63,134 nt of DNA from Ignavibacteria bacterium. GTDB taxonomy: Bacteria; Bacteroidota; Ignavibacteria; Palsa-1295. Both the position numbers and the translations under genes were made by a program. Positions 17,655 through 26,894 of this stretch are shown here, one piece after another (the first letter of the stretch is position 1; the number at the start of each line of letters is the position of its first letter). The notes under the pieces are model-generated. The model ran no database searches. It saw only the letters and a list, made by a program, of their open reading frames with translations, and was not told the origin of the DNA. The stretch spans positions 1 through 63,134 of the forward strand of contig JABDDM010000005.1 of the NCBI GenBank assembly GCA_013287605.1, read 5' to 3'.

Positions 17655-19427
17655 ATGGCGACAGACGTTGTAATGCCCAAAATGGGCGAGAGCATTACCG
17701 AAGGTACCGTGCTTCGTTGGCTAAAAAAAGAAGGGGATACGGTTGCGAAAGATGAACCGATCCTTGAAATATCCACAGACAAAGTTGATACCGAAGTGCC
17801 GTCGCCAGTTGCAGGCACGCTCTTGAAGGTGTTGGTTCAGGAGAAAGAGACCGTTAGCGTTGGGACTCCGATCGCTTCGATAGGTGAAGCGGGAACAGGG
17901 AACGGGGAACAGGGGAAGAGTAAGCCGGCGGCGGTTAAAGCGGAAGTTGTTCCGGCGCCACAGAAGGCAGCTGTTCAGGAGGCTGCACCGCAACAGAAAG
18001 TTGCTCCACAGGCTGCGCAAGCGGCGCCTCCACAGCAAGCGGCAGCGCCAACTGAGCAAGCATCAAGTGGCGGTCAAGGTCAGGCTGTTGTGATGCCCAA
18101 GATGGGCGAGTCGATCACCGAGGGCACGGTGCTTCGGTGGTTGAAGAAAGAAGGAGATGCTGTAAAGAAAGATGAGCCGATCCTTGAGATCTCTACGGAC
18201 AAAGTTGACACGGAAATACCAGCTCCATTTGCGGGCACGCTCTCAAAAATCGTAGCCCAGGAAAAAGAAACCGTTGCGGTTGGTTCGACCATCGCCTACA
18301 TCTCAACCGGCGCTTCACAACCAGCTTCCGCAAAAGCTCCTGCCGCCAAACCTGCTGATCAAGCTGCACCGCAAAGTGCTCCGCAACCGGCCCAGCAACA
18401 ACCAGCTCAGAAACAGGAAACGGCTCCGCAACAAGTGTCGCAGCAAATAGCGGCGCCAGTCAGTCGCGGTACTGGCAATCGATTCTATTCGCCCCTTGTG
18501 CGATCGATCGCAAAAGCGGAATCCATTTCACAGGAAGAACTTGATAGCTTGAAAGGCTCGGGTCTTGAGGGACGAGTCACGAAAGATGATATTCTTGCTT
18601 ACGTCGAAGCCAAGAAATCGGGCAAGGTCGCTCCTGCACAGCAACAGCCTGCGCAAAAGAGCGTCGCGCCGGTAAGTTATGCTCTGCCTGCCGAGGGACA
18701 GTATACTGTGATCCCGATGGACAATATCCGTCAGCGCATCGCCGAGCACATGGTTCGTTCAGTACACACGAGTGCGCATGTCACGAGTGTGACCGAAGTC
18801 GATGTGACGAACATTGTGAACTTCCGCAACAAGTTCAAAGACGAATTCAAATCGCGTTATGGTATCAACCTGACGTACACACCGATCTTCATCGAAGCGA
18901 TGGTCCGCGCGATCCGCGATTTTCCGATCATCAACTCGAGTGTCGATGGAACGAACATTATCGTAAAGAAGGAGATCAACTTTGGTGTCGCAGTGAGTCT
19001 TCCACAAGTCGAGGGTTCTCCGCTTCCTCCAGCGCTCATCGTGCCGGTGATCAAACGCGCCGATGAGTTGAGTCTTCCGGGTCTAGCAAGGGCCGTGAGT
19101 GATCTTGCAGCCCGAGCGCGCACGAAGAAACTTACTCCGGATGACATCTCAGGTGGTACGTTTACACTGACTAATCCTGGCATCTATGGTAATCTCTTCG
19201 GAACGCCGATCATCAATCAGCCGCAGGTTGCAATCATGACAACCGGCGCCATCGTCAAGCGAGTCATTGTGAAGACAGATGAAGCCGGAAATGATACGAT
19301 GGCGATACGGAGTATGATGTACCTGGGGCTTAGCTACGATCACCGCGTGATCGATGGAATGTATGGCGTGAAGTTCACCGATGCGGTGAGGAAGTATCTC
19401 GAGGAGTTCTCAGCAGAGAGTATCTGA
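17655..19427 (+). CDS. 2-oxoacid dehydrogenase E2 (dihydrolipoamide acyltransferase) with two lipoyl domains
   Basis: There are two lipoyl domains ('VVMPKMGESITEGTVLRWLKKEGD...EISTDKVDTE' twice) and Ala/Pro/Gln linkers. The subunit-binding domain is 'FYSPLVRSIAKAESISQEELDSLKGSGLEGRVTKDDILAYV'. The catalytic domain carries 'LSYDHRVIDG'. Confidence 0.93.
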   Translation: MATDVVMPKMGESITEGTVLRWLKKEGDTVAKDEPILEISTDKVDTEVPSPVAGTLLKVLVQEKETVSVGTPIASIGEAGTGNGEQGKSKPAAVKAEVVPAPQKAAVQEAAPQQKVAPQAAQAAPPQQAAAPTEQASSGGQGQAVVMPKMGESITEGTVLRWLKKEGDAVKKDEPILEISTDKVDTEIPAPFAGTLSKIVAQEKETVAVGSTIAYISTGASQPASAKAPAAKPADQAAPQSAPQPAQQQPAQKQETAPQQVSQQIAAPVSRGTGNRFYSPLVRSIAKAESISQEELDSLKGSGLEGRVTKDDILAYVEAKKSGKVAPAQQQPAQKSVAPVSYALPAEGQYTVIPMDNIRQRIAEHMVRSVHTSAHVTSVTEVDVTNIVNFRNKFKDEFKSRYGINLTYTPIFIEAMVRAIRDFPIINSSVDGTNIIVKKEINFGVAVSLPQVEGSPLPPALIVPVIKRADELSLPGLARAVSDLAARARTKKLTPDDISGGTFTLTNPGIYGNLFGTPIINQPQVAIMTTGAIVKRVIVKTDEAGNDTMAIRSMMYLGLSYDHRVIDGMYGVKFTDAVRKYLEEFSAESI

Positions 19428-19431
19428 TTGG

Positions 19432-20607
19432 CTAGTCGCCGAATGCGCTGATGCCGGTGATATCCTGCCCAAGTACGAGCGTATGGATATCATGCGTGCC
19501 TTCGTAAGTCCTGACCGATTCGAGATTGGCCATGTGCCGCATTATTGGGTATTCGCCAAGGATGCCGTTCGCTCCGTGGATATCGCGAGCCACGCGTGCA
19601 ATGTTGAGCGCAATGTCGACATTGTTGCGTTTCGCCAGCGAGACTTGTTGCGGTCTCATTTTGCCTTCGTTCTTGAGTGTACCAAGTCGGAATGCGAGCA
19701 ACTGCGCTTTGGTGATTTCGGTCAGCATCTCGGCTAGCTTCGCCTGGACGAGTTGGAATCCGCCGATCGGCTTCCCAAATTGAATGCGACTCTTAGCGTA
19801 CTCGACCGAAGATTCATAGCAAGCCATTGCTGCGCCGATCGCGCCCCACGCTATACCATAGCGAGCCTGTGTTAGGCATCCGAGTGGACCTTTCAAGCCT
19901 TCAACATTCGGCAGCAGATTCTCCTCTGGCAATTCGACATCCTGAAATACGAGCTCGCTCGTTATGCTTGCTCGGAGCGAGTACTTACCCTTCATCTCTG
20001 GTGCAGTGAAGCCTTTCATTCCTTTCTCGACGAGGAAACCGCGGATGTCTTTCGGATCGTCTCCGTCAAGCTTGGCCCATACCACGGCGACATCCGCGAT
20101 CGAACCGTTCGTGATCCACATCTTTGCACCATTGAGCACAAAGCCGTTCTTGGTGCGTTTTGCTTTCGTGATCATGCCTGATGGGTTCGATCCGAAGTCT
20201 GGCTCGGTAAGTCCAAAGCATCCGACTGCTTCCCCGGTCGCGAGCCTTGGTAGCCACTTCATTCGTTGTTCTTCGGAGCCATAAGCATAGATGGGATACA
20301 TCACGAGCGAACCCTGCACGCTGGCGAATGACCGAATCCCTGAATCACCTCGCTCGAGTTCCTGCATGATGAGACCATAGGCGATGTTGTCCATCCCCGC
20401 GCATCCATACTTCTCCGGAAGCGTCGCACCGAGCAAGCCGAGTGCTCCAATCTTCGGGATCAGGTCTTTCGGGAAAGTCATCGCTTGATTGTGCTGTTCA
20501 ATTATAGGCAGCACCTCAGCTTCGACGAACGAGCGGACGGTGTCACGTACCATTCGCTGGTCTTCGGTCAGCAGCGAGGAGATATCGTAGTAATCGAGAT
20601 TGGTCAT
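19432..20607 (-). CDS. gcdH: glutaryl-CoA dehydrogenase (acyl-CoA dehydrogenase family)
   Basis: 391 aa. 'YGCAGMDNIAYGLIMQELERGDSGIRSFASVQGSLVMYPIYAYGSEEQRMKWLPRLATGEAVGCFGLTEPDFGSNPSGM' closely follows the GCDH consensus as I recall it. Confidence 0.85.
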   Translation of the reverse strand: MTNLDYYDISSLLTEDQRMVRDTVRSFVEAEVLPIIEQHNQAMTFPKDLIPKIGALGLLGATLPEKYGCAGMDNIAYGLIMQELERGDSGIRSFASVQGSLVMYPIYAYGSEEQRMKWLPRLATGEAVGCFGLTEPDFGSNPSGMITKAKRTKNGFVLNGAKMWITNGSIADVAVVWAKLDGDDPKDIRGFLVEKGMKGFTAPEMKGKYSLRASITSELVFQDVELPEENLLPNVEGLKGPLGCLTQARYGIAWGAIGAAMACYESSVEYAKSRIQFGKPIGGFQLVQAKLAEMLTEITKAQLLAFRLGTLKNEGKMRPQQVSLAKRNNVDIALNIARVARDIHGANGILGEYPIMRHMANLESVRTYEGTHDIHTLVLGQDITGISAFGD

Positions 20608-20704: not shown

Positions 20705-20738
20705 TAAAAAGAGGGCCGAAACGATCATTTCGGCCCTC
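20705..20738 (-). terminator. rho-independent terminator after the lipoprotein gene
   Basis: An 11-bp stem, gagggccgaaa (20711-20721) with tttcggccctc (20728-20738), is followed on the minus strand by a T-run (A-run 20706-20710 on plus). A second GC hairpin, gggcggg/cccgccc, lies at 20626-20645. Confidence 0.75.
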
Positions 20739-20758: not shown

Positions 20759-21514
20759 TTAGTTACGTCGATAGAGTTTTCGATCGATGACATAATCACC
20801 CTCATACGTGGTCGAACGGATCAATCCTATGTCCTTTGCAAACCATTTCACTAGGAGAATGTGATCATCCTTGCCTTCCTGCTGCTGTGAGTATGTGACT
20901 TCAGTTACGTGATAGTATGTATCATGAGTGCCTGTCGTTCCTTCAAGCCCGACAGTGAAATCGAAGAGGGTTACTCTTGCTTTTACTGTATCGCCAATGT
21001 ATGGATAGAACGTCCAAGTGGATGAGTCCTTCAGTGGTTGCTGCAGATCGAGCCAACGTGTGACCACAGGTTTGTGCTTCTGCGGATCGTAATACCAGGA
21101 GACATTGTACGCTTGATCAGAGCTGATAGCGAACAGTGTATCTGCGCCCGGATTCGACGTATGGTTTTTCCGTTTAGCGAAGTTAGAACGATAATACTGA
21201 AATCCAGAACCGGTGGGCATGGCATAACTGGGCAACTGTTGAAGCTGCTTGCTTGTGAGCATTCCTTGCGTGACGACGATCGCTGTGTCAAACCCGGAAT
21301 AGTGATTGTGCAGACTTGAATCGCGGATCGAATAGAAGAGCGAATCGCCAGGGTGGTCTACGTGCGAATAGATTGTCCGGACGTCGGTGATCGGTTGTGG
21401 AGGCTGAGGAGGGGCATCAACGAACGACGCACAGCCACTGCCGGAGCAAAGTGCTGCCAGAAGCAGCAAGTGCCCAAGAAGGCCTGAGGTTCGTTTTCGT
21501 ATGATCGTATTCAT
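20759..21514 (-). CDS. hypothetical lipoprotein, third gene of the ECF module
   Basis: The start is placed at MNTIIRKRTSGLLGHLLLLAALCSGSGC, a lipobox with Cys. It lies 19 nt downstream of the anti-sigma stop. No family was recognised. Confidence 0.7.
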   Translation of the reverse strand: MNTIIRKRTSGLLGHLLLLAALCSGSGCASFVDAPPQPPQPITDVRTIYSHVDHPGDSLFYSIRDSSLHNHYSGFDTAIVVTQGMLTSKQLQQLPSYAMPTGSGFQYYRSNFAKRKNHTSNPGADTLFAISSDQAYNVSWYYDPQKHKPVVTRWLDLQQPLKDSSTWTFYPYIGDTVKARVTLFDFTVGLEGTTGTHDTYYHVTEVTYSQQQEGKDDHILLVKWFAKDIGLIRSTTYEGDYVIDRKLYRRN

Positions 21515-21533: not shown

Positions 21534-22937
21534 TTAGAAGCGGTAGGCAAGCCCATATTGGATCCTGCCATTGAGCGTATTGCGAATGTCTGATCCCTGG
21601 AAGATGATCGGCATTTCGCCAGCAGATGATAGCTCACTAGAAATAACGTCGCGCATCAGTGGCGCGGTCGAGTGGATGCGCATCAATGAGAATCCTGCCG
21701 TGCCGGTCAGGTGCTCACCAAACGGTAACTTGAATCCGAGTTCGAACGAGAAGGTATTGCCCTGCGGAATCAGGCCAGCACCACCCGCGATTTCAAGTGC
21801 AAGTCCCGATTGAGGTGAAAGCAAGAAGCGGTGCCCGTAAAATACTTCTTCTGCAAGTTCACGCTGCTCCGAGAGATCGCGATGGACGACGATCGCACTC
21901 GAAGTCGTGCTCTTCACAATTGATGGCAGCGTCTGAAAAATACCAGAAGTAACCCTGAGTCCGACTACATCATGTTCGCCAAGGAAGTATGTTAGGTTGG
22001 CTCTAAAATCGGCAAAAGGATGAACTGTTGGCCCGCTAGCAGGATAGCTAAATCCGCTCGAGGTTTGCAGCCCTAATTCAAAATCAGAAATACCAGCAGG
22101 ACGATCGATGCCGATCGGTCGAATGTGCGTTAGAAAGTTCGTGCTGTGATAGCTGCTGCCAGCACTCGCGGCAATCGCAGTGTGAGGTGCCACCATCGTC
22201 ACAGAAGCAATGGATGCTTCATTGGCTACGGCTGACAGCACGTTTGCCTGCTCGGTAGCACTTGGTTGCGCAGAAATGTTTTGATCGGATGAATTTGGCA
22301 CCGGCAAAAGATCTGCATTTGCCTGGAATTCAGCCGAACGAGGTCCATGCTGTTGAACAGCATATACCCGATTGGTCACATGCACGTCACGAGAAATCCC
22401 GGCGGTGGGATTGACCGAACGAGTTGCTTGAGAAATATTCGCCTCCTGCTTTTTCAGCGAGCTTAGAGCCAGTCCGCCATTCGATGGTACATCACTTGGA
22501 GTCGTATTGTCTGGCTTGTCGATACTGCTGCTTTGCGAAGCAATGCTCGAACTCGTGGCAACAACATGATCACTACTTGAAGTTAACTCATAGATCGTAT
22601 AGCCTAAAACACCGAAGAGTAAGAGAGCAGCAGAAAGCCGGAACCACGAGTTCCACCAGAAGTAACCTGTACGGCGACGCTCAGCGGCGGCGAGTTGACT
22701 GACGTGTGTAAGGACACGCTCTTCGAGGGCAGGAGAGATGCTGCTTGCGAGAACAGCACGCTGCGAAATCTGCTGAAGTTGCTCATGCTCTGTAAAGAGC
22801 TGGCGGATTTCAGGGCTTACGCTTGCGCGATGCAAGAGCTCAGCACGTTCCGTGTCGCCGAGCTCGCCATCCATGTATTGAATGATGCGCTCCTCGACTG
22901 AACCCGCCGACATCGATTGTAGGTTTGTTTGTTTCAT
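21534..22937 (-). CDS. anti-sigma factor-like membrane protein with a C-terminal beta-barrel-like domain
   Basis: The N-terminus 'EERIIQYMDGELGDTERAELLHRASVSPEIRQLF' is an anti-sigma N-domain without the CxxC motif. One TM helix follows ('LSAALLLFGVLGYTIYEL'), then a Ser/Ala/Thr-rich linker of about 170 aa. The C-terminal 170 aa or so show alternating amphipathic strands and end '...GRIQYGLAYRF'. There is a 4-nt ATGA overlap with the sigma gene. Confidence 0.75.
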   Translation of the reverse strand: MKQTNLQSMSAGSVEERIIQYMDGELGDTERAELLHRASVSPEIRQLFTEHEQLQQISQRAVLASSISPALEERVLTHVSQLAAAERRRTGYFWWNSWFRLSAALLLFGVLGYTIYELTSSSDHVVATSSSIASQSSSIDKPDNTTPSDVPSNGGLALSSLKKQEANISQATRSVNPTAGISRDVHVTNRVYAVQQHGPRSAEFQANADLLPVPNSSDQNISAQPSATEQANVLSAVANEASIASVTMVAPHTAIAASAGSSYHSTNFLTHIRPIGIDRPAGISDFELGLQTSSGFSYPASGPTVHPFADFRANLTYFLGEHDVVGLRVTSGIFQTLPSIVKSTTSSAIVVHRDLSEQRELAEEVFYGHRFLLSPQSGLALEIAGGAGLIPQGNTFSFELGFKLPFGEHLTGTAGFSLMRIHSTAPLMRDVISSELSSAGEMPIIFQGSDIRNTLNGRIQYGLAYRF

Positions 22938-23692
22938 CGTGCGTAAACCTCCTCTTCGTCCTCGTGTCCTTTGTCCTGGTGCAGGGTCACCGTATCTGTG
23001 GGCTCAGTTTCCTCTGAAGCTGGCTGGGAAAACGTTTCCCGCGACCTCTGGCCCATGTTCCCGAAATACGGCTGCAGCAATTCTCGCAATCTTTTTTTAG
23101 CGCGTGTGATACGAACTTTGACGTTCATCACGGTGGTGTTGGCTACCTGTGCGATCTCTTCGTACGTGTAACCTTCGAATTCTCGAAGTAGAAATGCATC
23201 GCGGTACATCGGCGCGAGCTTACTCAGTGCGAGCTTCAGCAGATCGTCCGTCTGCATCGCCTCTCGCGGGTCGATCGTCAATTCCTTGTACTCCAGTCCC
23301 TCTCCATCCTGGCTATTGGAGAGCGCCGAACCGGAAGACGTAATTGGGACAAATTCCGGTGTAAATTTGCTTGTTCGGAGCATATTGAGGCAAACCGAAC
23401 GTGTAATCAGCATCAACCAACTCTTGAGCGCCTTGGGCTCGCGAAGCTGTTCGCGATGGGTAAAAACCCTCGCAAAGACTTCCTGGAAGGCATCTTCGGC
23501 GAGAACGCGGTCGCCGGTGTAATACAGACAGTACGAGTATACGTGCTGTCGATGGCGCGCATAAATAAACTTGAAGCCGGAAATCTCCCCGCGAATAAAT
23601 GCCTCAATCTGAAGCCTATCCGCCTGATCCTGATCAGGAGTAGTCTCTGGAAGTCCTGTTTCAGCTCGGCTTGCGCCTCGTCGATCCATCAA
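22934..23692 (-). CDS. ECF-type RNA polymerase sigma-70 family factor with an acidic C-terminal extension
   Basis: Region 2 is 'HVYSYCLYYTGDRVLAEDAFQEVFARVF'. Region 4 is 'MYRDAFLLREFEGYTYEEIAQVANTTVMNVKVRITRAKKRLRELL'. A tail of about 45 aa ends 'HEDEEEVYAR'. Confidence 0.9.
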   Translation of the reverse strand: MMDRRGASRAETGLPETTPDQDQADRLQIEAFIRGEISGFKFIYARHRQHVYSYCLYYTGDRVLAEDAFQEVFARVFTHREQLREPKALKSWLMLITRSVCLNMLRTSKFTPEFVPITSSGSALSNSQDGEGLEYKELTIDPREAMQTDDLLKLALSKLAPMYRDAFLLREFEGYTYEEIAQVANTTVMNVKVRITRAKKRLRELLQPYFGNMGQRSRETFSQPASEETEPTDTVTLHQDKGHEDEEEVYAR

Positions 23693-23812
23693 GAAATTCC
23701 GTACTGCGGATCAGTGCACTTGGGTCATCCGCAGGGATAAAGACACCTTTTCCACGGCTTGGGTTACAAAAGCACGAATTTTTGCTGAGAACGCAAATTC
23801 CCGGTCTAATTA

Positions 23813-23987: not shown

Positions 23988-26894
23988 ATGAAACTACGCT
24001 CCATTGACTTTTGCAGAGTCATTTCTGTCATCCTCTTAATGTGCCTGCTTGGGGCAGGCTCTTCTCACGCACAAGGAAGGGTTGACCAGTACATTACAAC
24101 GACCTTTTCGGGAACTGTGCAGTCAATTTCCAGTACCGGGAATCCGCTGTCCTATGACGACGATGGCGTTTATTCTTTTAACGCTCCTTTCTCATTCGTA
24201 TATGATAGCACCACGGTAAGCTCCGGTACCCTGATGTACATAATGGATAATGGAATGATAGGGGTTGGCAGTTCGGCTAACGCGTCGTACAACAGCTCTT
24301 CATTAGGCTTTAGTACATATCCAAACCTCCTCTGTATCCTGAATACAGATCTGAATCACAACGGCAACCCTGGCAATTACTGGCAGGTTACAGGTACCTC
24401 GCCGAATCGCGTTTTGACGATGGAAGAATACAACGTCGAAGCCTTTGGCTACTCGACGGAGTCAGTGACCATTCAAACAAAGATTTACGAGTCCACTGGT
24501 GTTATTGAATTCTGGTATAGTAATTATAACTATACAATCAACGGAAGTGATGGATGCCAATGCGTATCGATCGGCTTGAATGGCGGCATAACTCCCTCGT
24601 TCAAATACTTGACATATGTAGCAAGCTCGACAACAACGCCAGGTTCAAATGTCCGTTTTACGCCGCCACCGCCACCCAAAGTTGCGCAATTGTCCGTTCA
24701 GCCGAAATCGGTTGATTTTGGATTTTTGCAGAGTGGACAATCATCGACGCTTTGCTCGATCATCGTGAGGAACACTGGTCCGAGCGATAACCTGCTTTTC
24801 CGAAGCATTTCAATGTCTGGTAATGCGGATTTCTCCATCGTTGGCGCAACCCCAACTTCTCTTGCGCCAGGTCTGGCGGATACAATTTGCATCAGGTTTG
24901 GGCCGCTCGCTTCTGGAAACCGCAGTGCGACGTTGACATTCATAACCAACGGTAGGGATAGCGCGATTCAGCTTGTCTCACTCCATGGATTCGGAATTGC
25001 GCCCGGAATTTCTGTTGCTACAACAAGCCTCTTTAAGAAGACGAGAACAAAATTGGGAGACTCGCTAACCCAGTCGTTCCTCGTATCGAGCACCGGAACC
25101 GGACCATTAACCTTTCTGAGTATTACTCCGACAGGACTCTACGCCGGTGAATACGCCGTGACTCGCATGCCACTCAGTCCGTTGCCACAAGGTACTTCCG
25201 ACACAATCTCTGTGACGTATAAGCCAACACAAGAGGGCAGTCGTCCAGCCTTTCTTGCGATTCAAAGCAACGCACTTAATCTTCCGAGCGATACCATCAA
25301 ACTCTTTGGGGTTGGGACGCTGCCACGCTTGACAGTGACACCAGAGCCTCTCAACTTTGATTCTGTTGGTGTTGGCGATCAACGATGCAGCGATGTTACG
25401 TTGTATAACCCCGGAACCGACACAGTGTTGATCACCCACAACTACTTATCAAGCTTCGATGCTGATTACACGATCACACCGCTGACTGGGCTGGATACGA
25501 TCATTCCTCCGGATAAGAGCAGGACAATTCATGTCTGCTTCACGCCTATTCGCAACGGCTTGCGTCAGGCGCGCCTCCGTGTCACGACCAGCATTCCACT
25601 GACGTTCGAAGAGCCACGCCGCGATACCAGTTCATTTTTCGTTGACATCATTGGCGAGGGCGTGCCGTTCGGGAGACTTTCGGTCAGAGGCACAGCCATC
25701 ATCGATTCCGCGATCGTTGGACAGAAGCTTTGCAAGACCGACACGTTCTATAACTCTGGATCGGCGGCTGTTACGATTTCGGGAGCAACGATCACTGGGA
25801 CTAGTGCGACGGACTATGTGCTAACCGGCGTCACATTCCCGATTGTTGTGCAGCCAGGCCAGAGTCAGGTATTCACGCTTTGCGTAACGCCTGCCCAACG
25901 CGGCGACCGCACAGCATTCCTAAATCTTGCTGCAACATCGAACGGTAAGCCCATCAACGACAGTCTTCCACTCGATATCTTTGGGCAGTTGGTCTGTGCA
26001 TCTGCAACGCCAAGTTCTGCCTTTGCAACAAAAACGTGCGTCGGGATGACCGATACTGCGTGGGTCGTTGTCTCGAATTGCGGTGATGTTGCAACGCCGT
26101 ACACTGCTTCGATTCCAACAACCGTGACTACGTACGCGGTTGCCGGCGCAGCCACTTCCACAGTCGTTGGCCCGAATGGCAAGGCGACGTTCCCGATTAC
26201 CTTCACGCCAACTGATCGCACGCCGCAAAATGCGACGCTGACGATCACAGGCAATAACGGTGTTTTGCAGACAGTGACGCTTACCGGTACCGGTCAGGCT
26301 GCGATCGCAGTAGGCTCGGGTGTCGCGGATACCACGCACATGCAGCAGTCGTCGAACTTCAATCTGAAGATCAACAACACTGGTGAATGTGAATGGAACC
26401 CAGGAACACCGACTTTCTCGGATCCGCAGTTCAGTTACGTGAGCGGTAGCACAAACATCCCAGCGGGTGGTTCGGGTACGATCGTTGTCAAGTTTGCGCC
26501 GACCAAGGGCGGATTGCAGACCGCGACGCTCGCATTCCCAACTGCAATTGGAGTTTCGCTTCCAGCAGCGAACGTCACTGTCTCCGGCTTCGCCACAGGA
26601 GTCCAGGGCGTGGCTCAACTTGCCGAGGCCAATGGCTATAGTTTGAAACAGAACTATCCGAACCCGTTCAACCCGACGACAGAGATTCGTTTCGTAGTTG
26701 CCAAGGAAGGAACTGTGACGATGAACGTCATCGACGTCACAGGTAAGGTTGTTCGCAACGTGCTCAATGAACGAATGAGTGCTGGCGAACACTCAACGGT
26801 CGTGAACGCGAGCGAGCTTTCGAGCGGTGTGTACTACTATCAGCTCATCGCCGGTAGCACAGTGCTAACTCGTCAGATGGTGCTTGCGAAGTAG
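23988..26894 (+). CDS. large T9SS-sorted surface protein with repeated Ig-like (choice-of-anchor-D / ASH-type) domains
   Basis: 968 aa. It has a signal peptide and at least 6 repeats of the 'L.v.P..ldFG.v.vG......i.v.N.G...l.i' type. It ends in the type-A sorting domain 'LKQNYPNPFNPTTEIRFVV...SSGVYYYQLIAGSTVLTRQMVLAK'. Confidence 0.85.
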   Translation: MKLRSIDFCRVISVILLMCLLGAGSSHAQGRVDQYITTTFSGTVQSISSTGNPLSYDDDGVYSFNAPFSFVYDSTTVSSGTLMYIMDNGMIGVGSSANASYNSSSLGFSTYPNLLCILNTDLNHNGNPGNYWQVTGTSPNRVLTMEEYNVEAFGYSTESVTIQTKIYESTGVIEFWYSNYNYTINGSDGCQCVSIGLNGGITPSFKYLTYVASSTTTPGSNVRFTPPPPPKVAQLSVQPKSVDFGFLQSGQSSTLCSIIVRNTGPSDNLLFRSISMSGNADFSIVGATPTSLAPGLADTICIRFGPLASGNRSATLTFITNGRDSAIQLVSLHGFGIAPGISVATTSLFKKTRTKLGDSLTQSFLVSSTGTGPLTFLSITPTGLYAGEYAVTRMPLSPLPQGTSDTISVTYKPTQEGSRPAFLAIQSNALNLPSDTIKLFGVGTLPRLTVTPEPLNFDSVGVGDQRCSDVTLYNPGTDTVLITHNYLSSFDADYTITPLTGLDTIIPPDKSRTIHVCFTPIRNGLRQARLRVTTSIPLTFEEPRRDTSSFFVDIIGEGVPFGRLSVRGTAIIDSAIVGQKLCKTDTFYNSGSAAVTISGATITGTSATDYVLTGVTFPIVVQPGQSQVFTLCVTPAQRGDRTAFLNLAATSNGKPINDSLPLDIFGQLVCASATPSSAFATKTCVGMTDTAWVVVSNCGDVATPYTASIPTTVTTYAVAGAATSTVVGPNGKATFPITFTPTDRTPQNATLTITGNNGVLQTVTLTGTGQAAIAVGSGVADTTHMQQSSNFNLKINNTGECEWNPGTPTFSDPQFSYVSGSTNIPAGGSGTIVVKFAPTKGGLQTATLAFPTAIGVSLPAANVTVSGFATGVQGVAQLAEANGYSLKQNYPNPFNPTTEIRFVVAKEGTVTMNVIDVTGKVVRNVLNERMSAGEHSTVVNASELSSGVYYYQLIAGSTVLTRQMVLAK

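Follow-up and report, generated by a model that had tools for sequence, protein, structure and literature searches.

The closest described counterparts of the locus reported here are the Dma anti-sigma factors, a two-membrane design which was described and fractionated as a protein family in the Bacteroidota (Pardue et al., PNAS 2024; PMC10927553). Dma1 (BT_4721 of Bacteroides thetaiotaomicron) is found at full length in total membranes, its C-terminal barrel is recovered in outer-membrane vesicles (OMVs), which hold only C-terminal fragments, and its N-terminus pulls down Das1 (PMC10927553). According to the model put forward for these proteins, the barrel senses perturbation of the cell surface or outer membrane, which leads to proteolysis and thereby to release of the sigma factor (PMC10927553). 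Here, we describe a 467-residue protein which is predicted to share this design and which is encoded on the reverse strand at positions 21534..22937 of contig JABDDM010000005.1 of an Ignavibacteria bacterium (assembly GCA_013287605.1). The whole stretch of 63,134 nucleotides that was analyzed is referred to as the window. We consider the protein, with a probability of about 0.75, to be a Dma-type anti-sigma factor which belongs to a Kapaibacterium-like bacterium of the phylum Bacteroidota and whose self-regulated operon also encodes a sigma factor and a lipoprotein.

The Dma design has been found only in Bacteroidota, where Dma1 was present in 27 of 29 genomes, and an orthologue of Dma1, Reo of B. 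fragilis, had been studied earlier (PMC10927553). The family is defined by architecture and not by the Pfam family OMP_b-brl_2, with Dma1, Dma2 and Dma3 brought together for the likeness of their structures (PMC10927553), and a more recent preprint lists four defining parts and an association with sigma factors of the extracytoplasmic function (ECF) group ECF21 (10.1101/2025.09.27.678952). The family is by now mentioned in at least 25 papers. The main text of a classification paper on ECF sigma factors holds no description of ECF21 or of a barrel-fused anti-sigma factor (PMC7826278). Since the authors define the family by architecture, the present protein is filed as a divergent Dma member, whose likeness to Dma1 may reflect either homology or convergence. 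An earlier note on this DNA, made from the sequence alone, had proposed that one polypeptide spans the cell envelope, and its author knew of no characterized anti-sigma factor with this architecture. The predicted layout and the class of barrel support the proposal as far as computed evidence reaches, and the novelty of the design has been superseded by Dma1 (PMC10927553). The architecture itself was thus already published in 2024, and what is added here is a barrel without any Pfam match, a small family of proteins which carry it, and a three-gene operon with its promoter and terminator.

A single polypeptide with four predicted parts

The gene and the parts of its product are as follows.

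21534..22937, reverse strand: gene of the candidate Dma-type anti-sigma factor, 467 amino acids plus stop, with an ATGA overlap with the sigma gene and a layout common to 55 full-length relatives
22662..22937, reverse strand: cytoplasmic helical domain, residues 1-92, a putative sigma-binding anti-sigma domain (predicted helices; sub-threshold anti-sigma matches)
22587..22655, reverse strand: single transmembrane helix, residues 95-117, predicted inner-membrane anchor (the only strongly hydrophobic 19-mer)
22092..22586, reverse strand: Ser/Ala/Thr-rich periplasmic tether, residues 118-282 (165 amino acids), predicted to be disordered from low model confidence and composition
21537..22091, reverse strand: C-terminal domain, residues 283-467 (185 amino acids), predicted outer-membrane-type beta-barrel (structure model, structural matches, conservation pattern)
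21537..21560, reverse strand: C-terminal beta-signal QYGLAYRF, residues 460-467 (polar-x-G-x-x-aromatic-x-aromatic)

The ATG of the gene shares four nucleotides (ATGA) with the TGA stop of the upstream open reading frame (ORF) at 22934..23692 on the same strand. A database gene call for the protein, P0002, comprises 459 residues and starts at Met9; the start at Met1, which gives 467 residues, is favored because the four-nucleotide overlap of the sigma and anti-sigma genes recurs in most of 23 loci.

Several features which the earlier note had read from the letters are borne out by these coordinates, including the ATGA coupling to an ECF sigma gene and a single transmembrane helix, the only such hydrophobic segment lying at about residues 95-117. 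The linker, estimated at about 170 residues rich in Ser, Ala, Thr and Gln, is 165 residues long and indeed rich in the first three, with Gln less prominent and Val more so than had been thought (S29 A23 V13 T12 P11 N11 I10 Q9). The C-terminal region, put at about 170 residues, comprises about 185; the strands quoted for it do have strongly alternating hydrophobicity, and the terminal residue is Phe. The layout and its ending are not a matter of chance, as both recur in the 55 full-length relatives, in which the order of the four parts is constant.

The assignment of the C-terminal domain to the outer membrane is based on the predicted fold, the termination of the chain and the pattern of conservation. 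In the AlphaFold2 (AF2) model, residues 283-467 are all-beta, with strands of 11-17 residues and one short helix at 428-438; the predicted local distance difference test (pLDDT), averaged over blocks of ten residues, is mostly 82-94 from about residue 310 onward and 59-74 for residues 281-310. A comparison of the model with the Protein Data Bank (PDB) by Foldseek gave 19 matches with E <= 0.001, every one of them an outer-membrane or designed transmembrane barrel, including FadL, PcoB, OmpA, a Dot/Icm porin of Legionella, Ail, NspA, FapF and the N-terminal domain of OprF; lipocalins, avidins and sandwiches were absent from this set. The template modelling score (TM-score) normalized to the 467 residues of the query (TMq) is 0.25-0.26, which is roughly 0.63-0.66 when rescaled to the 185-residue domain. 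Structure prediction, which the earlier note had proposed as a check, thus yields a confident all-beta domain with barrels as its only matches at this threshold, and neither a soluble sandwich nor a disordered region.

The barrel is most likely eight-stranded, as judged from the model and its matches. When normalized to eight-stranded targets, the score (TMt) reaches 0.70 for NspA, 0.67 for the N-terminal domain of OprF, 0.65 for OmpA (short) and 0.75 for a designed eight-stranded barrel, as opposed to 0.37-0.39 for a designed barrel of ten strands. In our reading of the DSSP segments, the eight strands would comprise residues 286-298, 306-318, 323-344, 349-372, 380-390, 393-406, 410-423 and 453-466, whereby strands 3 and 4 most likely run on as a polar surface hairpin (about 323-372) and the loop at about 424-452 holds the helix. 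The turns on the periplasmic side would then be short, and the domain would begin and end at the periplasmic face, as a tethered barrel must. A count of ten DSSP segments had suggested a ten-stranded barrel; this is less likely given the difference in TMt (0.65-0.75 against 0.37-0.39) and a polar stretch at 341-360, which fits a surface hairpin.

The chain ends in QYGLAYRF, which we take to fit the beta-signal consensus of the beta-barrel assembly machinery (BAM) and the sorting and assembly machinery (SAM), i.e., polar-x-G-x-x-aromatic/hydrophobic-x-aromatic with a final Phe or Trp. Phe467 and Tyr465 (position -3) are each conserved in 53 of 55 relatives and Gly462 (position -6) in 50, and hydrophobic residues occupy positions -1, -3, -5, -7 and -9 from the C-terminus. 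The most conserved residues of the barrel are charged or polar and lie on one face of the strands (E287, D310, R312, R328, E364, E399, R403, R420, H422 and R458, with E287 and H422 kept in 52/55, R420 in 50/55, R328 in 48/55 and E399 in 45/55), while on the opposite face of these clearly amphipathic strands L, I, V, F and A replace one another without restriction. A conserved polar face combined with a variable hydrophobic face suggests a polar lumen and a lipid-facing exterior, whereas a soluble core would show the reverse. The periplasmic ends of the strands are enriched in aromatic residues (F286, Y317, F406, Y465 and F467).

By sequence, the anti-sigma assignment of the N-terminal domain is the weakest link. 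AF2 predicts helices at residues 14-22, 28-40 and 42-64, followed by a further helix from 69, with block-mean pLDDT values of about 77-86 for residues 11-60. Residues 1-92 are devoid of Cys, and the putative anti-sigma domain is therefore not zinc-binding. In hidden Markov model (HMM) searches, zf-HC2, a model covering the first helices of class I anti-sigma domains, was the most common Pfam match and ranked first in 14 of the 20 family members searched, without passing the cut-off in any of them (best E 0.0015), RseA_N was matched by one of the 20 (E 0.028), and the NCBIfam anti-sigmaE model PRK13920 matched the protein with E 5e-4, far below its cut-off. The first 60 residues are the best-conserved part of the family outside the barrel, and S[VI]SPEIR is a conserved motif of the N-terminus. 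The assignment is made because these weak matches are consistent, because a helical bundle is followed by a transmembrane helix, because the translational coupling is conserved, and because Dma1 and Reo provide a precedent.

The transmembrane segment lies within a long helix of the AF2 model (69-120) and has an equivalent in all full-length relatives, with Kyte-Doolittle scores of 1.5-2.5. Between this anchor and the barrel, pLDDT falls below 50 (residues 120-282). The sequence of the tether is unconserved and its length varies from 108 to 191 residues across relatives (median 131), corresponding to a contour length of about 39-69 nm at 0.36 nm per residue, which exceeds the width of the periplasm.

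Conservation and distribution of the fused protein

An exhaustive HMMER search of 1.84 billion cluster representatives with a profile of the C-terminal domain gave 52 matches, almost all of them proteins of 370-490 residues which carry the domain at their extreme C-terminus, so that the family is small, with about 50 clusters. Among these matches no stand-alone barrel gene was found. The shorter matches start in linker-like or transmembrane-like sequence and are without a signal peptide, and the two that were traced lie at the edge of a 1.9-kb contig and on a contig of 0.9 kb. On the latter, a metagenome contig of 901 bp (L025), a 199-residue barrel match (P0017) is preceded by an overlapping 57-residue ORF which runs off the start of the contig; most simply, a fused gene would here be interrupted by a frameshift or a fault of assembly, and the split would not be genuine. 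A two-gene version of the protein was rejected, as the short matches have no signal peptides, lie on contigs of 0.9-1.9 kb and include one apparent frameshift.

The earlier note had raised the possibility that the ORF corresponds to two genes in homologues and had proposed to test whether the C-terminal domain always accompanies an ECF sigma factor. In all 23 loci, drawn from genomes and metagenomes, a single ORF runs from the S[VI]SPEIR motif to the Y-x-F end, i.e., wherever there was sufficient DNA, one gene is found and an ECF sigma gene accompanies it. When residues 1-120 were used in a word-indexed search directed at N-terminal relatives that carry PF13568, only four members of the family itself were found.

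All 19 genome loci belong to metagenome-assembled genomes (MAGs) labeled as Candidatus Kapaibacterium, 'Ignavibacteriae', Bacteroidota or unclassified bacterium, and the NCBI taxonomy places Kapaibacterium within the Bacteroidota. The sequence of the present locus was matched in a single soil-metagenome DNA run, and paralogues of the sigma, anti-sigma and lipoprotein genes are absent from the 63-kb window.

A three-gene operon with a putative autoregulatory promoter

The remaining elements of the operon are the following.

23742..23768, reverse strand: putative ECF-type autoregulatory promoter, TGTAAC-N16-GTGTC, about 50 nucleotides upstream of the sigma start
22934..23692, reverse strand: ECF sigma factor gene, 252 amino acids from TTG, with an ATG one codon later (Pfam and NCBIfam matches)
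20759..21514, reverse strand: gene of a conserved lipoprotein, 251 amino acids, lipobox ...SGSGC, with a predicted open beta-barrel fold that is DUF3108/YmcC-like and LolA-superfamily-like (AF2 and Foldseek)
20711..20738, reverse strand: strong intrinsic terminator closing the three-gene operon, a 12-bp stem with seven G-C pairs followed by TTTTT, 21 nucleotides past the lipoprotein stop

Every locus with enough DNA has the same gene order of sigma factor, anti-sigma factor (usually with the four-nucleotide overlap) and lipoprotein. The sigma factor is matched by Sigma70_r2 (9e-16) and Sigma70_r4_2 (5e-16) of Pfam and scores 92 bits against TIGR02937 (sigma70-ECF) of NCBIfam, for which the cut-off is 42.9 bits; no equivalog model of NCBIfam reaches its cut-off, and the Bacteroidetes models TIGR02985 and NF058625 are likewise below theirs.

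Upstream of the sigma gene, the consensus TTGTAAC-N16/17-GTGTC[CT]T is found in all of 21 non-redundant loci, whereas the best two-block word in shuffled controls occurs in at most four. The motif is present exactly once in the window, against an expectation of 0.04, and once each in 23 of 24 loci. Its blocks have the form of an AAC-containing -35 and a GTC-containing -10 element, which we take to be that of ECF promoters, and the motif is probably the cognate autoregulatory promoter of the sigma factor. At the other end of the operon, the terminator separates it from a downstream acyl-CoA dehydrogenase gene (19432-20607, reverse strand).

In all 22 loci with DNA at this position, the lipoprotein gene begins 10-70 nucleotides past the stop of the anti-sigma gene or slightly overlaps it, and its product has 214-254 residues in the relatives. 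The lipoprotein is modeled by AF2 with a pLDDT of 84 and a predicted TM-score (pTM) of 0.77. Its best Foldseek matches are 3FZX (BF2203, 'YmcC-like fold', DUF3108), with E 9e-6, probability 1.00 and TM 0.42-0.49, and 4FVS; BF2203 and BDI_3050 are found at E about 1e-5 (TM 0.39-0.49), followed by LolA and LolB at TM 0.2-0.36. Pfam gives DUF3108_like only, in one of 15 members (E 0.08, 13 bits against a cut-off of 27 bits). Conserved motifs of the lipoprotein include WxDLxxPL...W.F and KWFA.G.G. A NigD-like identity was considered and rejected, since NigD_N and NigD_C gave no match at E <= 10 in the 15 members and no structure described as NigD-like is among the top 50 Foldseek matches. A lipoprotein ORF call of 292 residues is too long at its beginning, as its GTG start lies within the anti-sigma gene.

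Comparison with known signaling systems

Like Dma1, the present protein combines a (putative) sigma-binding N-terminal region and one transmembrane helix with a disordered tether of considerable length and a small barrel at the C-terminus, which has eight strands in Dma1. An ECF sigma gene is adjacent in the operon, the phylum is Bacteroidota in both cases, and a lipoprotein gene adjoins the pair (NigD2, BT_4719, beside dma1; an unrelated lipoprotein in the present family). The two differ in that Dma1 is annotated with OMP_b-brl_2 (PF13568) whereas the present barrel has no Pfam match at all, and in that profile searches tie the present family to nothing else. Furthermore, the lineage consists of Kapaibacteria and 'Ignavibacteriae' MAGs from soil and sediment instead of gut Bacteroidia, the partner lipoprotein is DUF3108/LolA-like and not NigD-like, the sigma factor falls below the Bacteroidetes-specific NCBIfam cut-offs, and control of OMVs or a similar function is known for no member of the present family.

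The arrangement also resembles RpoE-RseA-RseB of Escherichia coli with DegS and RseP, in which a sigma factor, a single-pass anti-sigma factor and a periplasmic modulator are encoded in one operon, signaling is tied to the C-terminal Y-x-F motifs of outer-membrane proteins (OMPs), and regulated proteolysis is, as is likely here, the mechanism of release. Moreover, the third gene product is LolA-superfamily-like, and so is the large domain of RseB. In contrast to the present protein, RseA ends in the periplasm without a barrel, and the Y-x-F signal stems from other, unassembled OMPs and is sensed by the PDZ domain of DegS. RseA_N is matched by only one of 20 present members (E 0.028), and the similarity of the lipoprotein to LolA is weak (TM 0.2-0.36).

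In FecA-FecR-FecI and the trios of SusC-like protein, anti-sigma factor and ECF sigma factor of Bacteroides, a barrel in the outer membrane likewise signals to an anti-sigma factor of the inner membrane and, through it, to an ECF sigma factor. Two polypeptides are involved there, namely a TonB-dependent transducer of 22 strands and a FecR-type regulator, whereas here receptor and anti-sigma factor would form one chain and the barrel is small; the anti-sigma protein has no Pfam match to FecR or DUF4974 at E <= 1. The small eight-stranded barrels (OmpA N-terminal domain, OmpX, Ail, NspA and OprF N-terminal domain) are the best structural matches (TMt 0.53-0.70, probability 1.00) and resemble the present domain in their short turns on the periplasmic side, their polar lumen and the aromatic beta-signal at their C-terminus. 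They are only about 10% identical to it in sequence, show no HMM relation to it, and have cleaved signal peptides and no tether to the inner membrane.

Proposed mechanism and alternative explanations

From these features, the following sequence of events can be proposed. The ECF sigma factor, co-translated with the anti-sigma factor, would be held by residues 1-92 on the cytoplasmic side of the inner membrane, in which helix 95-117 would anchor the chain. The disordered tether of about 165 residues would span the periplasm, and BAM would fold the 185-residue C-terminal domain into the outer membrane via QYGLAYRF even as the chain keeps its inner-membrane anchor. Upon a disturbance of the outer membrane or cell surface, or failed assembly of the barrel, the tether would become exposed to periplasmic proteolysis, and a subsequent intramembrane cleavage would release the sigma factor. 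The freed sigma factor would then transcribe from TTGTAAC-N16-GTGTC, in the first place its own operon and hence also the downstream lipoprotein gene. The computed basis of this proposal comprises the domain layout, the fold class of the barrel, the beta-signal, the conserved fusion and an operon with its promoter motif and terminator. By analogy with Dma1/Das1 and RseA, we infer that the sigma factor is bound, that the barrel is inserted into the outer membrane and that proteolysis releases the sigma factor, and what is proposed for the signal and for the lipoprotein is taken from the same analogy.

Some points weigh against a Dma-type anti-sigma factor. The AF2 model was built on a family alignment of only 13 sequences, and both the closure of the barrel and the number of its strands were derived from DSSP segments and the folds of matching PDB entries, not from the coordinates of the model. 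The search against OMP_b-brl-type models which the earlier note had recommended came back empty: neither Pfam nor NCBIfam assigned any OMP family, including OMP_b-brl_2 (PF13568), to the whole protein or to the isolated barrels of this protein and 11 relatives at E <= 10. A sequence profile search of the PDB with the barrel alignment gave chance matches only (E >= 0.08), and the same search with the N-terminal alignment found no anti-sigma structure, only designed helical bundles (E 0.03). Support from anti-sigma HMMs for the N-terminal domain is below threshold throughout. The transmembrane segment of this protein is of no more than moderate hydrophobicity (1.52 on the Kyte-Doolittle scale for the best 19-mer). 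A profile of 43 sequences retrieved nothing outside the family in a word-indexed search, and a common ancestry of its barrel with that of Dma1 is, on sequence grounds, unproven. The lineage is uncultured, being represented by MAGs from soil and sediment. Finally, the Dma authors themselves leave open how BAM folds a substrate which is anchored in the inner membrane (PMC10927553).

Three further interpretations can be considered. The failure of the curated OMP models to recognize the domain, the polar character of the middle strands (341-360) and the fact that AF2 can over-predict barrels from shallow alignments could all be accommodated if the C-terminal domain were a soluble or peripherally docked periplasmic beta-barrel, which stays clear of the outer membrane, binds a ligand or partner and forms the unusual sensor domain of an otherwise ordinary single-membrane anti-sigma factor. 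We regard this as quite improbable, given that Foldseek returns membrane barrels alone at E <= 0.001, that the strands are long (11-17 residues), that conserved polar residues and a variable hydrophobic face are the opposite of what a soluble core would show, that the chain has a canonical beta-signal ending, and that a linker of 108-191 residues would be needless for a domain which stays at the inner membrane; moreover, the barrel of Dma1 was recovered in OMVs (PMC10927553). With all anti-sigma HMM matches below threshold and no anti-sigma sequence match in the PDB, the protein could also have nothing to do with sigma factor inhibition and be a structural tether between inner and outer membrane, or a processed OMP with an uncleaved or unusual export signal, that belongs to the regulon of the ECF sigma factor. 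This explanation is highly improbable: the four-nucleotide overlap with the sigma gene is kept across the family, the N-terminal 60 residues are the best conserved outside the barrel, zf-HC2 is the top Pfam match in 14 of 20 members with RseA_N in one, a helical bundle followed by a transmembrane helix is the layout of class I anti-sigma factors, and Dma1 and Reo bind sigma factors via the equivalent region (PMC10927553).

The third interpretation is a sub-case of the Dma-type explanation instead of an exclusive rival and concerns what the barrel reports. The barrel could serve not as a receptor but as a sentinel substrate for the assembly of outer-membrane proteins, since every newly made molecule would depend on BAM for its folding. 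If assembly were disturbed, the C-terminal domain would stay unfolded with its Y-x-F end exposed and be degraded in the periplasm along with the tether, and the sigma factor would be released, which would make the protein a one-chain equivalent of the OMP-peptide/DegS/RseA pathway, modulated by the LolA-like lipoprotein as RseA is by RseB. The perfect and highly conserved beta-signal ending in Y-R-F would suit such a role, as would predicted surface loops that are very short save for one hairpin and one helix-containing loop, and an operon partner with a DUF3108/LolA-superfamily-like fold, the large domain of RseB being LolA-like. The proteolytic fragments of Dma1, which vary with growth phase (PMC10927553), would fit as well. 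However, the conserved residues of the lumen and the protruding hairpin would be needless for a mere reporter of assembly, and the TM-scores to LolA are low (0.2-0.36), so that a pure sentinel function appears distinctly unlikely.

A broader proposal, which we consider unlikely if by no means negligible, is that the Kapaibacteria/Ignavibacteria proteins did not diverge from a Dma1 orthologue and are an independent, sequence-unrelated invention of the design, or else a very ancient sister clade. The system would then have three obligate parts, with the invariably linked DUF3108/LolA-like lipoprotein as the third, which binds lipid, lipopolysaccharide or the tether and gates proteolysis of the tether in the manner of RseB, and the barrel would double as a reporter of BAM function. 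If this were true, one-chain signaling from the outer membrane to the cytoplasm would be older and more varied in the Fibrobacteres-Chlorobi-Bacteroidetes (FCB) group than the work on gut Bacteroides suggests.

Implications for envelope sensing

The Dma design is the only known regulator which is embedded in both membranes of a diderm bacterium, and studies of it have been confined to gut Bacteroides. On the Dma-type explanation, the present family places the same design in a deep-branching, uncultured and environmental lineage of the Bacteroidota. As the barrel is missed by all curated models, surveys based on OMP_b-brl_2 would under-count such sensors. The compact barrel of 185 residues with its textbook beta-signal provides a testable component; the canonical signal argues for ordinary BAM recognition of a substrate anchored in the inner membrane. 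The sharply defined putative promoter, TTGTAAC-N16/17-GTGTC, could be used for mapping the regulon in complete genomes, and the invariably linked LolA-like lipoprotein may belong to the signaling mechanism.

Neighboring genes

Divergent from the operon, a gene at 23988-26894 (forward strand) encodes a 968-residue protein with multiple immunoglobulin-like repeats of the HYDIN/ASH/Cep192 type and a C-terminal sorting domain of the type IX secretion system (T9SS; Por_Secre_tail). In the closest relative (L001), the corresponding place is taken by a 966-residue counterpart, and in another locus (L005) by a different T9SS cargo gene. The T9SS cargo gene does not belong to the core cassette of more distant loci and carries no copy of the ECF promoter motif; its presence next to the operon was counted with membership of the lineage in the Bacteroidota. 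Farther away, an ORF of 590 residues at 17655-19427 (forward strand) contains two N-terminal lipoyl-type repeats (VVMPKMGESITEGT...DKV) with Ala/Pro/Gln-rich linkers between them. By eye, its product looks like an E2 acyltransferase of a 2-oxoacid dehydrogenase complex, which would be unrelated to the anti-sigma factor.

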